A DNA stretch of 64,000 nucleotides from Okamejei kenojei (Eukaryota): the NCBI GenBank assembly GCA_035221665.1, contig CM069145.1, forward strand, positions 32,178,001 through 32,242,000. Direction: 5' to 3'. Within the stretch, counting starts at the first letter, position 1. The number at the start of each line of letters is the position of its first letter. Under the pieces are notes generated by a model. It did no database searches. It was not told where the DNA came from and saw only the letters and a program-made list of their open reading frames with translations. The position numbers and the translations under genes were made by a program. Below are positions 16,809-61,607 of this stretch, piece by piece.

Positions 16809-17426
16809 AGGGCCTGTCCCACTTGGGCGCCATTTGCGCGTCATTTACGCAACAGGCCGGTAATGACTGACGCGCGACCATCGCGCGAAAATCATCTAGC
16901 AGTACGACAGTCGCACGCCAAGCGCTCCTGAGGGCCCTGCCCCCTTTGGGAGCCATTTGCGATGTCGTTCGTACCTAGTCCGATCTCCGTGGCAAGGATT
17001 TTCTCAGTGAAAATCAAAAATACTATGGTGAAAATTTTTCAAAACTACGCGCGCTTTATACCTGGGTGGTCATGTGGTGCGGTGCTCAAATTAAGCGCAA
17101 ATGGCGTGCAGACCACGTACGGGCGGCGCACGGTTACGGATGTTGACGCACGGTGATGCATAATAAATTAGCATAGGCAACAGTCGTGCGTCACCGTGCG
17201 TAACCATGCATCACCATGAACTACACGTACGGCATCAATGCATCAGCGTACGCCATTAGTATGTCAGCGTGCGCATGAGATATGTCACGCAGGTGGCGCG
17301 CAAGGATTTTGAGCCTCACAAAATCCTGGGGCGCCGTGTGTTACCGCACGTCACTGCATACGCCACCACGCACGCCAACCAATTTTTAGGATGTCGCACA
17401 AATGACGCCCAAGTGGGACAGGCCCT
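16809..17426. mobile_element. PIF/Harbinger-type MITE, complete
   Basis: TIRs AGGGCCTGTCCCACTTGGGCG(C/T)CATTTG, TAA TSD at 16806-16808 and 17427-17429, CpG-rich interior. Confidence 0.9.
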
Positions 17427-46447: not shown

Positions 46448-48361
46448 TTAACAGAATTGAGAAAATTCAATATTCAAGCCCAAAGGATGCAGACTCCCCA
46501 AGCGGAATATGAGGTGCTGTTCCTCCAGCTTGCGGTGTTGCTCACTCTGGCCGTGGAGGAGGCCCAGGACCGAGAGGTCGGATGTGGAATGGGAGGGGGA
46601 GTTGAAGTGCTGAGCCACCGGGAGGTCGGGTTGGTTATTGCGGACCGAGCGGAGGTGTTCGGCGAAGCGATCGCCAAGCCTCCGCTTGGTCTCACCGATA
46701 TAGATCATCTGGCATCTGGAGCAGCGGATGCAGTAGATGAGGTTGGAGGAGGTGCAGGTGAACCTCTGTCGGACCTGGAAGGACTGATTGGGTCCCTGAA
46801 AGGAGTGGAGGGGGGAGGTGAAGGGACAAGTGTTGCATTTCTTGCGGTTGCAAGGGAAAGTGCCCGGGGAAGGGGTAGAGTGGGAGGGGAGAGAAGAATT
46901 GACAAGGGAGTTGCGGAGGGAGCGGTCTTTGCGGAAGGCAGACAGGGGGGGAGATGGGAAGATGTGGCGGGTGGAGGGGTCACGTTGGAGGTGGCGAAAC
47001 TGGCGGAAGACTATATGTTGTATTTGCCGGCTGGTGGGGTGAAAGGTGAGGACCAGGGGGACTCTGCCCTGTTTGCGAGTGGGGGAATGGGGAGCAAGGG
47101 CAGTGTTGCGGGGTATGGAGGAGACCCTGGTGCGAGCCTCATCAATAGTGGGGGAGGGGAATCCCCGTTCTCTGAAGAATGAGGCCATTTGTGATGACCT
47201 GGTGTGGAACACCTCATCCTGGGAGCAGATGCGGCGTAGACGGAGGAATTGGGAATAGGGAATGGAGTCCTTACAGGAAGCAGGGTGGGAGGAAGAGTAG
47301 TCCAGGTAGCTGTGGGAGTCAGTAGGTTTGTAGTGGATGTCGGTCAGGAGCGTATCACCTGCAATAGAGATGGTGAGGTCAAGGAATGGTAGGGAAGTGT
47401 CGGAAATGGTCCAAGTGTATTTGAGTGCCGGATGGAAGTTGGTGGTGAAGTGAATGAAGTCAGTCAGTTGTGTGTGGGTGCAGGAGGTGACACCAAAGCA
47501 GTCATCGATGTAACGGAGGTAGAGGTCGGGGATGGGGCCCTGGTACGCCGAGAACAAGGATTGTTCGACGTACCCAACAAAGAGGCAAGCGTAGCTGGGG
47601 CCCATGCGTGTGCCCATAGCTACGCCTTGTGTTTGGAGGAAATGGGAGGAATCAAAAGAGAAGTTATTGAGGGTGAGGACCAACTCTGCTAGGCGGAGGA
47701 GGGTGTCAGTGAACGGGTATGGGTTGCTCCTCTGGTCGAGGAAGAACCGGAGGGCTTTGAGACCGTCCTGGTGGGGGATGGAGGTGTAGAGTGACTGGAC
47801 GTCCATGGTAAAGATGAGAGGATGGGGGCCTGGAGAATGGAATGCACGGAGCCGACGGAGAGTGTCTGAGGTGTCTTGAACATAGGTGGGGAGGGATTTA
47901 ACAAAGGGGGATAGGATGGTGTCAAGGTATGTGGAAATGTGTTCGGTGGGGCACGAACAGGCAGAGACAATGGGTCTGCCAGGGCAGTCGGGTTTGTGGA
48001 TTTTGGGGAGAAGGTAAAATCGGGCCGTGCGGGGCTGGGAAACGATGAGGTCGGAGGCTCGGGGGGGTAGGGAGCCGGAGCTGATAAAGTCGGTTATGGG
48101 GCTCGAGATGGTGGCCTGGTGTTCGTCAGTTGGGTCATGGTCCAGGGGTAAGTAGGAGGAGGTGTCCGAGAGTTGGCGCGCGGCCTCCGCTTTGTAGAGA
48201 TCGACGCGCCAGACTACCACGGCACCTCCCTTGTCGGCGGGTTTGATAACCCAGTCTGGGTTGTTACGGAGTGAGTCGATGGCAGTACGTTCAGGGCTGG
48301 AGAGATTGGAGTGAGACAGGGGGGTGGAGAAGTCGAGGCGGTTGATGTCCCGACGGCAGTT
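46448..48361 (-). CDS. PLE polyprotein fragment: reverse transcriptase + Cys linker + GIY-YIG endonuclease (no native start)
   Basis: KPADKGG, LPKIHK, GRPIVS, MDVQSLYT, GVAMG, RYIDD, FLD, KPTD, CNRKKCNTC linker, NLIY..CSRC..YIGET..R..EH, GLN. About 640 codons without a stop. Confidence 0.93.
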   Translation of the reverse strand, partial: NCRRDINRLDFSTPLSHSNLSSPERTAIDSLRNNPDWVIKPADKGGAVVVWRVDLYKAEAARQLSDTSSYLPLDHDPTDEHQATISSPITDFISSGSLPPRASDLIVSQPRTARFYLLPKIHKPDCPGRPIVSACSCPTEHISTYLDTILSPFVKSLPTYVQDTSDTLRRLRAFHSPGPHPLIFTMDVQSLYTSIPHQDGLKALRFFLDQRSNPYPFTDTLLRLAELVLTLNNFSFDSSHFLQTQGVAMGTRMGPSYACLFVGYVEQSLFSAYQGPIPDLYLRYIDDCFGVTSCTHTQLTDFIHFTTNFHPALKYTWTISDTSLPFLDLTISIAGDTLLTDIHYKPTDSHSYLDYSSSHPASCKDSIPYSQFLRLRRICSQDEVFHTRSSQMASFFRERGFPSPTIDEARTRVSSIPRNTALAPHSPTRKQGRVPLVLTFHPTSRQIQHIVFRQFRHLQRDPSTRHIFPSPPLSAFRKDRSLRNSLVNSSLPSHSTPSPGTFPCNRKKCNTCPFTSPLHSFQGPNQSFQVRQRFTCTSSNLIYCIRCSRCQMIYIGETKRRLGDRFAEHLRSVRNNQPDLPVAQHFNSPSHSTSDLSVLGLLHGQSEQHRKLEEQHLIFRLGSLHPLGLNIEFSQFC

Positions 48362-48549
48362 CTGGTTTTTTGAAGGAATCTGATATAGTTGATGAAAGGG
48401 ATAAAGCATTTGTGTTGTGTCAGGAATAACAAAAAGATCATGGATGGGTTGATTTAGTGGGTGAAAATTTGGCAACTGCCGTTTAGTCTGGGACAGCGTG
48501 AGGTCAAGACCTGATGGTCTGAATACTTTTAGCAAGACACCATGTGCTA

Positions 48550-48790
48550 GAAAATCTTAGCAAGTCGGGCAGCATCTGTGGAGGGGAATGGACAGACAGA
48601 GTTTTGGGTCAGGACCCTTTTTCAAACTGATAGAAGTGGGAGGAGAAAGCTGGAAGAAAGAGGTGGGAATGGAACAAAGCCTGGCAAGTGTTTGGCAGAT
48701 GGGTAGAGTAAGTGACAAAGGCTCGAGGTGAAAAGGAGACAAATGGGCGTCAGATAAGGAGAGGCGAAGCGAAATCCTCAAGTACATCAT
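48550..48790 (-). mobile_element. Older Penelope 3' UTR fragment
   Basis: GGCAGCATCTGTGGAGGGAATGGACAG...GGGTCAGGACCCTTTTTCAAACTGA. Confidence 0.6.
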
Positions 48791-56319: not shown

Positions 56320-56590
56320 GGGCAGGACAATGGTGCAACGGGGGAGCTGCTGCGCCAGGCACCTGGGTTCGATCCAGACCTCAGGTGTTGTCTGTGCAGA
56401 GTTTGCATGTTCTCCCCGTGATAGCATGGGTTTCTTCCCACATTCCAAAGACGCGTAGGTTTGAAGGTTATTTCTGTAAATTGCCCCTCGTGCGTAGGTG
56501 GTATAACCTGGAACTAGTGTGCGGGTGATCAATGGTGGGTCAAAATGCCTGTTCCTGCACTGTATCTCTAAACTAAACTAAACTAAACTA
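56320..56590 (+). mobile_element. HE1-type SINE
   Basis: B box GGTTCGATCC, core GAGTTTGCATGTTCTCCCCGTG, (AAACT)n tail. Confidence 0.88.
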
Positions 56591-58058
56591 TTATCTAAAA
56601 TGATGTGAAATAATTTAACATTGTTTTGACTTGTACTGAGGACAAATTGTTCATATTCAGCATAACACTGGTTGTAATTTGTAGCAGTTAAAATATTCAA
56701 CAAATCCTGGAAATGAAGAATCAAACAAATATAGGAGGAAGCACACAAAAATACTTGCGTCATTTCAAAAGAAAACTGCCGGCGATTTTGTTAACGTCCA
56801 AAGAGTGAGAACGAGTGTAATGTTTTGAAAGCAGATTATTCGTCCTTATTCAAAAACGTTAACCTGTTTACTTTTTCAGATGCAGATCATCTGGATCTGT
56901 GGTTGCTATTGGACAATTGAATGTGAAACGCAGCATGTCTGTTTACAAGTGTTGAGGGGCCTGTGTGCAGCTTAGTCCTTAAAATTATTGCACAGATTGG
57001 CAACTGTAACACCCAAAATGCATACCTTAGGAAAAAAGCCTTAACTGCATAATCATGAACCCACAAACATCTGACTGGAATGATACAAACTGTGGTTCAG
57101 ATATGTGTGGCTTCATGATCTACTCCGCAGACTGAGATCAGAATTACAGTCTCTTGCAAGCAACATTAAAGCAAGACCGTGTCTGCTCTGTGTGGATGAT
57201 CCCAAGCCAGAACTTCAAAGAAGTCCATGGCCGTCCGAAGTTGGGTGCGACCGCACCCCTCTTTTTTTCTAGAGGAAAACAAATTCCGAGGAAAAAAAAA
57301 TATATATATTTGCGACCATCCGCTCCCGCGCAGTGGGGGTAAGCTGGTGACCAAAGACGCAGAAGCGACGCAAAATGACTCTGCGTGTGTGCAGTGGGCG
57401 GGATCAGATCACCGCCATTTTCAATGCATCCCAGGCCTAGTTTGGGTGGGTGGGACCATGACATATTGCGTTGCGTTGCGGGAAGGGGGAATCTGGTTGT
57501 TTTATATCGAGGGTGTTAAACTACCTGCGAAGGGTCCAACCCGACCCGCGGGATGGTTTGGAAAAAAAAAGGACTTCCCGATTCTCCGGGGGCGGAGGTG
57601 CGGTGTGGTGTTTGCCCGCCCGGTCCATGGGCTCCATCCGCGGTGTCGGAGCCTCGCCTGCGGGTCCCATCCGCTGCTGGCGGTCGGTCTGGGAAGACCG
57701 TACTCCCGTCATCAGGCGGGAAGCGGGAAGGACTGAATATGAACCCAGTCCTGGCAGCGGCCGTGACCCGACACCAGGCGCTGCTCAGGCTGGGTCCACG
57801 CCACCACCCCCCCACACCCCCCGCCGGTCCCTTGCCCCCAACCCTTGCCTTTCCCACCCCCCCCCCCACCTTGCCTTTCCCACCCCCCAGCCAGGCCCCC
57901 CCCCCCCCCATTGTTTCTGGTCGGCAACGGCGACGGCTGTAGTGCGGGGTGACGCAATTGATTTTATTGTATTAATTTTAATATATTGGTTGAAAATCCA
58001 TACATTGAAGGAAGAATATTTTATAGTCCCTCTGTGGTCCTTAACCCCAACCCTAACC

Positions 58059-58278
58059 GGTCGTCGCCCGCAGGACAGCATACGTCAGCGTATGACAGGG
58101 CGCACGACATGATGAGACACCCAGATGTCGCCCCTGGATTTTGAACATTCCAAAACCCAGAGGTGACAGGGAGTCACCGCGCGTCACTACGTGCGTCACC
58201 ACGCATCCGGCCGCGTCACGACTCGATAACCTTTTTTCAGGCTGTCGCCGAAAATATCACCCAAGTGGGACAGGCCTT
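58059..58278. mobile_element. Harbinger MITE right end nested in the cargo
   Basis: Ends CCCAAGTGGGACAGGCCTT + TCA, the same TIR as 16809-17426. Abuts the truncated FAM110C frame. Confidence 0.75.
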
Positions 58279-59335
58279 TCACGCTGCGAAACTTGAGGGC
58301 AAGGTTTTCGAAGGCGGCGTCGGCGGCAAACTTCTCCCTGGCCAGGTTCTCGATCACCTCAGGCTCGAGTCCGCAGTGCTCGAAGAAACTGTCCAAGCCC
58401 GAGCAGGCTCGATAGAAGCAGCAGCTGAGGTCGGCGTGCGAGCGCCATAATCCGCCTTCACCAAACTGCCGCTTGAGCAGCTCCTTGGGGCGACCTGCTG
58501 CTGCTTCTCGTGGCGCTGCTGGCGTGGTTACTTGTGCACCCTGGGATGCTGCTGGCGAGGCTGCTGTTTCTCCCTGGAGTGCTGGTGGCGTGGCGACTGG
58601 TGCTTCCTGGGGCGCTGCTGGAGTGGTTACTTGTGCACCATTTGGGTGCTGCTGGTGTAGTTACTTGTGCACCCTGGGATGTTGCTGGAGAGGCTGCTGT
58701 TTCTCCCTGGAGTACTGCTCGTGTGGTTACTTGTGAACCCTGGAGTGCTGCTGGTGTGGTTACTTGTGCACCCTGGGGTGCTGCAGCCGCTGTACCCTCT
58801 GCTTCTCCCCTTCCGACATTGCTGCTCCTGTTGCCAGCCCTTGCTGCTTGTTGCCCCGGCCGCTAGAGCCGGGCAGCAGCCAACGGACCAGGCTGCCAGT
58901 GCTCTTGAAACTGTGGGCGCTGCTATTGGCCGCCGCTCCTCGCACAAACTTACACTTCTGCTGGTACATGACTAGCGAATCGGGCCTGAGCTGCCTTTTG
59001 GAGCTGGAGCAACGCACAATGTCAGGTGGGAGCCCCAGCTGCCCGCTGCTGGGGGCTGCCGGAGGCCAGGTTAGTCTTCATACCCTGCTGCCGCTGCCTT
59101 CCTCGGGGGCAGAGCTGCCCAAACCATTGGGCTCCACTTTGCACCCCCTTGCCTTCTGGCTCTTCAAGTTCTTGGCGTTGTCGGCAGCCAGTCTCTCCAC
59201 AACGCTCTGCCGACCCCGCCTGTCCCCCTCCATTTGACTGCGGAGGTAGCCGGGGCCCTTGGACATGAGCCTGAGCGGCAGAGAGATGCTCGCCTCAGGC
59301 AGCATGCTTGCAGTGGGCATGATCTCGCTCGGCAC
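58279..59335 (-). pseudogene. FAM110C: FAM110C-like pseudogene, C-terminally truncated
   Basis: N-terminal FAM110 motif PLRLMSKGPGYLRSQ...SVVERLAADNAKNLKSQ. FAM110C-type RPDSLVMYQQKCKFVRG. C-domain LWRSHADLS...LDSFFEHCGLEPEVIENLAREKF...LKFRSV. GTG at the start position, in-frame TGA at 59078-59080, two frameshifts, missing ERNARIIKWL tail. Confidence 0.88.
58505..58790. repeat. 30-bp tandem repeat inside the FAM110C copy, ~9 units
   Basis: Unit GCTGCTGGYGTGGTTACTTGTGCACCCTGG; the minus strand encodes PAAPQGAQVTT-like decamers. Confidence 0.9.
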
Positions 59336-59648
59336 CTTACTTTGATCCAGCCAACGAGGACAAACACGTTTTCACATCCGCAAAGAAGGAAAGACCAGGA
59401 CTTACATTTGGTGCAAAAACTCCAAAATAAGGCTCAGAATGCACCAGATTGCATCTAAAACCCAAAAGCTTTCAGGCCCTTAAGCGGGCCCTGGAACCCG
59501 GATGTGAGGGGCTTCCCGCTTGTGATGTGCACTGTGTGCACATTACTTCACATAACATTTTTGGAATCCTGTCATGCCACCCCCCTTTTTGAAAAGCTTC
59601 GTACGGGCCTGAAGTCCAAGGGAATTGCGCCCAGTGTATCTTTTTTTC

Positions 59649-59915
59649 TTAGTTTAGAGATACAGCGTGGAAAAAGGTCCTTTGGCCCACCAAGTTCATG
59701 CCCATACACTATCACAATCCCACACACACTTGGGACACTTTTACAAATCTTACCAAAGCCAATTAACCTACAAACCTGTATGTCTTTGGAATGTGGGGGG
59801 GGGAAACTGGAGCTCCCAGAGAAAACCTATGTGGTCACGGGGAGAAAGTACAAACTCCGTGCAGACAGTACCCTTAGTCACGATCAAACCCGGGCCTCTC
59901 AGCTCTGCAAGACAA
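59649..59915 (-). mobile_element. HE1-type SINE
   Basis: TTAGTTTAGAGATACAGCGTGGAAA...AATTAACCTACAAACC...GTACAAACTCCGT. Confidence 0.8.
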
Positions 59916-61305: not shown

Positions 61306-61607
61306 AATAATAAGATTAAACGAGAACTTACCAGTTTGAAGTTTGATCTTTATTTTATGAGGAGTTACGATGAGGGATTACTTAAAGAAGCCCCGCAAGG
61401 CGCATGCGCGTCATACTTCAAAGCAGCGGTGTGAAAACGCAGTAACTATAGTCAAAGTGATATAGTAAGACCCAGAAGACTAGAACTACCAGATGATCTT
61501 TGCGATTATGAGGGTCGGGAGCGGAGGGCACGTAATCCCTCATCGTAACTCCTCATAAAATAGAGATCAAACTTAAAACTGGTAAGTTCTCGTTTAATCT
61601 TACTATT
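61306..61607. repeat. DIRS terminus / internal complementary region inverted repeat
   Basis: 61306-61381 is the reverse complement of 61532-61607 with about 3 mismatches. Confidence 0.9.

Follow-up and report, generated by a model that had tools for sequence, protein, structure and literature searches.

Pack-MULE and Pack-CACTA elements of plants are non-autonomous transposons with terminal inverted repeats (TIRs) that multiply mostly dead pieces of host genes and form chimeras. In animals, the capture of genes by cut-and-paste transposons is regarded as rare, and as nearly always single-copy and fragmentary (PMC8277862). As given in the sections of this survey that are cited here, 100 reference animal genomes yielded 370 cases of Pack-TIRs including four multicopy families (Tan et al. 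2021, PMC8277862), and the commonest carriers are hAT elements (208 of the 370). Pack-hAT-N8_XT of Xenopus tropicalis has three copies and carries a 291-bp piece of a UTR (PMC8277862). The elephant shark, the only cartilaginous fish that a search of the survey by name retrieves, is listed there without a Pack-TIR. Helitrons of vespertilionid bats have also amplified host gene sequence, with 12,382 copies over all families in the part of the description cited here (PMC4224331). No published description of a FAM110C-carrying skate transposon was found in the literature searched, which left out most subscription journals, Repbase and Dfam.

The element described here lies at positions 57226-59611 of a 64-kb stretch of the genome of the skate Okamejei kenojei (below, the window). 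It is a copy of a hAT transposon that is non-autonomous and makes target site duplications (TSDs) of 5 bp (Table 1). The left end reads CATGGCCGTCCGAAG and the right end, read inwards from 59611 to 59597, reads CAGGCCCGTACGAAG; 12 of the 15 positions of this TIR pair are identical, and the direct repeat AAGTC stands on both flanks. The original prediction, made from the letters of the window, had named these borders, the imperfect 15-bp TIRs and the flanking repeat exactly. It had also described a GC-rich block, and indeed the GC content, 58% within the element, is only 43% and 39% in the 2 kb on either side.

The minus strand of the element contains the domains FAM110_N (E 8e-13) and FAM110_C (positions 1-61 of 114, E 2e-8), both above the Pfam cut-offs, and the predicted FAM110C-type block RPDSLVMYQQKCKFVRG. 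The captured fragment, first taken to span some 1.06 kb, is present but somewhat longer, about 1.12 kb. It is 84% identical to the parental gene along this length, ends at codon 355 of 419, has four frameshifts relative to the parent and is antisense to the transposase gene. The start codon is replaced by GTG (59335-59333). The claim that no transposase is present holds for the gene in the window copy; however, this copy still contains 10 bp from the 3' end of the transposase, the first three of which (ACC) are common to the FAM110C leader at the capture junction, and longer copies retain the last 48 codons.

Mapped against longer copies, the window copy is a type B element (defined below) with two further deletions. 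About 1.3 kb present in longer copies is gone at 57954/57955, and 0.45-0.66 kb present in most other copies is deleted directly after 59403. The first 554 bp of the left arm are 67-87% identical to the arm of the transposase-bearing locus L171, and the right arm is 74-94%, mostly 86-93%, identical to the right arms of other copies.

Table 1. Features of the Pack element (positions in the window)
Feature	Position	Strand	Evidence
Left TSD, 5 bp, AAGTC	57221..57225		family-wide 5-bp TSDs
Left TIR, 5' end of hAT element	57226..57240	+	same end on transposase-bearing L171, L202, L203, L204
Left arm	57226..57954	+	first 554 bp resemble arm of transposase-bearing sister subfamily L171/L202
Nested TTAA-type TIR element, right-hand part	57955..58277		its terminus, 58263-58277, cuts cargo at codon 355
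Captured FAM110C, ~60 nt of 5' leader and codons 1-355	58279..59396	-	84% identity to parent, Pfam, disablements
Transposase 3'-end remnant, 10 bp	59394..59403	+	junction alignment; remnant translation; hAT dimerisation domain in relatives
Right (3') arm of hAT element, TIR at 59597-59611	59404..59611	+	similarity to right arms of other copies
Right TSD, 5 bp, AAGTC	59612..59616		AAGTC repeat

The window contains a number of other repeats. One repeat, SINE-like by appearance, flanks the Pack element in two opposite orientations (56362-56576 and 59649-59894), with pieces that are 72-84% complementary. At 61306-61607 there is a MITE-like structure with inverted 76-bp arms, 96% complementary and separated by 150 nt. 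Long open reading frames at 2745-5258, 26589-29158 and 46451-48556 encode fragments of retroelement reverse transcriptase, RNase H or endonuclease. Eight long open reading frames in the window outside the Pack element yielded retroelement domains or no match at all, and no context of host genes.

The parental FAM110C gene was found at one locus on C5. As the original prediction anticipated, it is intact: a single exon encodes 419 amino acids, synteny is conserved, and the TIR motif is absent from the 9.9 kb at this locus. Its closest named relatives are the FAM110C proteins of Amblyraja radiata (86%) and Rhinoraja longicauda (82%), which bears out the assignment of the cargo to FAM110C. Exons of SH3YL1 lie 125 kb away; FAM110C and SH3YL1 are also neighbours at human 2p25.3, according to the part of PMC4359793 cited here. 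Three other FAM110 paralogue loci were found. Two of them, L078 (C20:42.42 Mb) and L053 (C27:9.05 Mb), appear frameshifted in the assembly, and thus some indels seen in single copies may be assembly errors. The third, L051, is intact. Judging by their motifs, L078 and L053 are likely FAM110A and FAM110D, and L051 is presumably FAM110B.

The element belongs to a large family, as had been proposed. A DNA search of the same genome, in which the best 40 of 4,480 candidates were scored, gave at least 100 matches on many chromosomes, and a search with the FAM110_C model was scored for the best 150 of 565 candidates. A 21-mer from the right end occurs exactly 371 times in the genome, whereas its reversed control does not occur; thus the family is not due to chance. 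A FAM110C 21-mer occurs 232 times, the parent included, and its reversed control again does not occur. Calibrated by the fraction of exact matches among copies that span this site (9 of the 26 found via the transposase remnant, 39 of 83 overall), the latter count suggests by extrapolation 490-670 cargo-bearing copies, some of them segmental duplicates on unplaced scaffolds.

Right ends are not all accompanied by cargo. At least 300 bp of FAM110C was found within 1.5 kb of nine of the first 30 exact right ends. Another eight of these 30 (L104, L108, L109, L117, L124, L125, L128, L132) have the flank GTGTA and no FAM110C within 1.5 kb. They likely represent a short derivative nested in another repeat and spread with it as a unit, and thus the 371 right ends exceed the number of independent insertions.

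The copies share their ends and differ in their flanks. Both ends are available for 22 elements; a perfect TSD of 5 bp is present in 17 of these and absent from five, and all 17 TSDs are different; 16 of the 17 belong to cargo-bearing copies. An earlier pass had given 15 of 18 paired elements. Paralogous empty sites exist for two of the 17 (L033 and L087), where the joined flanks match uninterrupted repeats elsewhere. The same search with the joined flanks of the window copy found no paralogous empty site.

Some copies lie close to one another. A further type B copy, L226 (G000:C15, ~32,165,000-32,167,655), lies shortly beyond the border of the window, at a distance of about 67 kb from the window copy, and the two are possibly related by a local hop. 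Closely similar type B copies occur on the unplaced scaffolds C388, C1121, C56, C121, C721, C299 and C967 (L163-L167, L206, L216). The four of these whose right end was read have nearly the same flank, ACAGG or TCAGG, which suggests amplification within a larger duplicated or tandem unit.

The carrier can be classified by its relatives. In longer copies the last 48 transposase codons adjoin the FAM110C leader, on the opposite strand. The central transposase exon was found at 11 loci in the genome. Of the nine examined, four (L171, L202, L203, L204) have the same left end as the window copy; in L202 the right end is present as well, together with a 5-bp TSD. The C-terminus of the transposase from L197 matches the hAT dimerisation domain PF05699 (29.5 bits, cut-off 21.4). 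The 48-residue remnant alone has no match in Pfam, and an 80-residue piece from L171 is below the Pfam cut-off. The central pieces had nothing above the Pfam cut-off, nothing in PDB and no longer relatives; their atlas neighbours are the DUF4371, FAM200/ZBED5 and GTF2IRD2-like clusters, all of which we take to derive from hAT. The transposase 3' end is repeated in tandem two to four times in L197, L201, L202 and L204, and twice in most type B copies.

hAT transposases with 5-bp TSDs are known as hAT5 (Kapitonov and Jurka 2007, as cited in PMC12730594). On the evidence of its 5-bp TSD and of the hAT transposase in relatives with the same ends, the carrier is probably of the hAT5 type, with which it shares the 5-bp TSD in place of the usual 8 bp (the part of PMC12730594 cited here). 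No intact transposase gene was found in the nine examined loci of the 11, all copies found being decayed and intron-containing, and therefore the mobilising enzyme is one that we infer.

Other classes were considered and rejected. A classical hAT of the Ac, Buster or Tip kind is excluded by the TSD, as none of the 22 paired elements has one of 8 bp. The CA..TG termini and the 5-bp TSD fit the Transib/CMCT clade, whose features are given in the cited part of PMC12730594 as CA..TG termini and TSDs of 2-5 bp. However, the linked transposase is hAT and not RAG1-like or CACTA-type, which rejects Transib and CACTA. A Pack-MULE would have long TIRs and a TSD of 9-10 bp instead of the 15-bp TIRs and 5-bp TSD seen here. 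Finally, a processed pseudogene made by a LINE does not agree with the TIR ends, the fixed junctions common to the copies and the absence of a poly(A) tail.

The history of the family can be read from its copies. At least 300 bp of FAM110C is present at 100 distinct loci, a sample biased by the manner in which loci were retrieved: the parent, one copy of the whole coding sequence (L057/L085), 48 copies of type B, 25 of type A and 25 partial ones. Type B extends from the leader to codon 355, and type A is the 3' third of the gene with its stop codon. The median divergence from the commonest letters of the subfamily is 4.6% in B and 7.1% in A. In L085, the left end is followed by a short arm of the L203/L204 type, then by FAM110C from 3 nt past the stop codon back to position -55, and then by the transposase remnant. 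The trinucleotides ATT and ACC at the two capture junctions are common to the gene and the element (3-bp microhomologies). This founder and the B copies have an identical right junction between cargo and transposase and identical indels in the leader, and thus likely descend from one capture.

In type B, the left arm is of the L171 type and runs directly into the right-hand portion of a nested TTAA-type element. The copy L218, which lies beside an L171-type arm, is of the founder type and contains the complete 1.7-kb nested element, with both TIRs, inserted at codon 355 and flanked by the 4-bp duplication CTCA/TTCA. Free copies of elements of this type end in TTAA-type sites. Kolobok transposons have TTAA-type 4-bp TSDs and AG..CT termini. 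We take the nested element, by its ends, to be Kolobok-like; its TSDs, including the nested CTCA/TTCA, agree with this type. The window itself has, at 16809-17426, a TTAA-type TIR element of 615 bp that is intact and whose ends are those of the one nested in the cargo.

A very probable scenario is as follows. Firstly, while a broken hAT5 element was being repaired, the growing strand may have switched template to FAM110C and back, at the microhomologies ACC and ATT. The whole coding exon, in antisense, would thereby have replaced the part between the first ~110 bp of the element and the last 48 transposase codons; the product survives as L085. Secondly, a TTAA-type element inserted at codon 355, the state seen in L218. 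Thirdly, an L218-like copy situated inside a sister hAT5 arm may have suffered a deletion by which the left arm of the outer element became fused with the nested one and the C-terminus of FAM110C was lost. This would have produced subfamily B, the window copy included, while a separate deletion may have left the 3' third of the gene in subfamily A. Finally, the elements transposed repeatedly, as witnessed by the distinct TSDs, and meanwhile start codon and reading frame of the cargo were lost; only the ends are required for movement.

One possibility is that the captured template was FAM110C mRNA or cDNA, by RNA-templated repair, and not genomic DNA; the later history would be unchanged. The cargo is nearly exactly the coding sequence, from 55 nt before the ATG to 3 nt past the stop codon, and contains neither promoter nor intron, although the parental coding sequence itself is one exon. 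On the other hand, a poly(A) tail is absent, the cargo ends 3 nt past the stop codon and not at the 3' end of a transcript, and the microhomologies at both ends fit ordinary template switching. Thus we consider an RNA template rather unlikely, and prefer a switch to genomic DNA.

A second possibility is that the cargo acts as a helper or forms a family of young genes, in that the FAM110C protein or an antisense RNA aided the spread of the element or has been kept by the host. The founder did capture a complete coding sequence, and there are about fifty cargo-bearing copies for each of the 11 loci that contain the central transposase exon. However, the two successful subfamilies have retained different, non-functional parts of the gene, and most B copies have inherited the start loss and the frameshift. 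GTG stands in place of the start codon in 41 of 72 copies, 50 of 65 show a -1 frameshift near codon 182, and the two defects occur together in 31; thus broken copies went on transposing. The same run of bases has no frameshift in early-branching copies, which argues against a systematic assembly error. Only three of 99 copies are free of disablements, and all three are partial.

The substitutions tell mainly the same story. Raw NG86 ratios of 0.55-0.84 could be read as selection, but a context-matched permutation shifted them to 0.79-1.17, and that reading was rejected. By this method omega is 0.37 between the parent and subfamily B (P=0.001) and 1.00 for the changes shared among 43 B copies, after removal of five others, of which one aligned poorly and four were nearly identical duplicates on scaffolds. 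In the 25 A copies it is 1.05 and 1.17. A mild excess of silent changes among the private changes of B (115 against 97 expected, P=0.019, omega 0.79) counts against dead cargo. A search aimed at open frames found, in 21 loci examined, two type B-like copies that are open from the ATG to the truncation: 361 aa in L217 (3207-4265) and 311 aa in L206 (1518-2473), both running into the nested element. A further open-frame copy is annotated in Amblyraja (P0013). The omega values of the two open frames are 0.81 (P=0.23) and 1.17, with no sign of purifying selection on either. In a single poly(A) library of a related organism, read to 6% (7.3 million records), 190 reads fall mostly on the arms and the depth over the cargo is 0-5, which is weak evidence on expression.

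Together these values, with omega between 0.8 and 1.2, suggest that the cargo decays nearly neutrally, and in most copies it likely makes no protein. A functional cargo is therefore very improbable. Related to it is the speculation, itself quite improbable, that the family of several hundred copies is not inert: small RNAs from the antisense cargo would control the parent, or the few open-frame copies (L217, the 311-aa protein of Amblyraja) would be young genes for a FAM110C lacking the conserved C-terminal motif. If true, this would be the first whole-gene cut-and-paste amplification of such size put to use in a vertebrate. Finally, the two readings by which the original prediction could have failed, a sole, genuine FAM110C locus with assembly errors or ends that come from two unrelated insertions, can be dismissed, since the intact syntenic parent is on another chromosome, both ends travel with the cargo and matching TSDs in 16 copies, and nothing speaks for either reading beyond signs of occasional assembly indels (L078, L053).

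Thus the window copy is very probably one of hundreds, descending from a likely single capture in a skate ancestor, with dead cargo moved by the transposase of related elements. The original proposal that a non-autonomous element captured FAM110C and moved it stands. The capture did not occur at this site: the window copy is a late, deleted descendant. What is added to that proposal is the identity of the carrier (a hAT, probably of the hAT5 type), the capture of the whole coding sequence, and its later truncation here by a second, nested transposon.

The family seems to extend to other skates. In the ranges searched, the only additional proteins annotated as FAM110C-like or FAM110B-like are two in Amblyraja and four in Leucoraja, the latter on four contigs. 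Most of them share derived residues with the copies described here, and Amblyraja P0013 stops at the same KFRSV/K point as type B. In the run of another organism, contigs bridge the junction of cargo and transposase (X13 record 20) and that of nested element and cargo (X13 record 17). A protein tree, from which the subfamily A rows and P0130 were left out, unites all the copies in it with the FAM110C of skates, to the exclusion of four other batoids, with support 100; with supports of 23-76 it does not place the capture relative to Rhinoraja. As judged from the protein sequences, the FAM110C-like proteins of Amblyraja and Leucoraja likely belong to the same transposon family, which would account for spurious gene models labelled FAM110C-like or FAM110B-like in the public annotation of skates.

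The family shows three features of multicopy Pack-TIRs: host sequence lies within TIR ends, the parent is situated elsewhere without the element, and the TSDs are distinct. As in Pack-hAT-N8_XT and Ssk-FB4 of Drosophila, the host sequence is held between TIR ends and has a distant, identifiable parent, and, as in multicopy Pack-TIRs generally, there are several distinct TSDs and short microhomologies at the breakpoints (sections of PMC8277862 cited here). Unlike Pack-hAT-N8_XT, however, the skate element took up an entire coding sequence of 1.26 kb and multiplied to hundreds of copies, far beyond what the survey reports for such captures, and unlike Ssk-FB4 its cargo has no sign of selection for protein (PMC8277862). 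The bat Helitrons are likewise vertebrate DNA transposons of high copy number in which the host sequence is sometimes reversed. However, they are rolling-circle elements with neither TIRs nor TSDs and carry mostly gene fragments, whereas the skate element moves by cut-and-paste (cited part of PMC4224331). With Pack-MULE and Pack-CACTA it shares the role of a non-autonomous TIR carrier that multiplies mostly dead gene pieces and forms chimeras by recombination. It differs from Pack-MULE in superfamily and in its 15-bp TIRs and 5-bp TSDs, as against long TIRs and 9-10-bp TSDs (PMC8277862).

Thus, capture by Pack-TIRs is a known and familiar mechanism, and what is unusual for a vertebrate is the whole-gene cargo, the copy number and the completeness of the preserved history. 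An entire conserved vertebrate coding sequence has been captured and copied hundreds of times, and the founder, an intermediate and transposase-bearing relatives survive in one genome. This makes the model of template switching followed by transposition testable step by step in a vertebrate. Moreover, several hundred near-neutral copies of one exon provide a set of insertion markers, and of sites for measuring mutation rates, for skate phylogeny.
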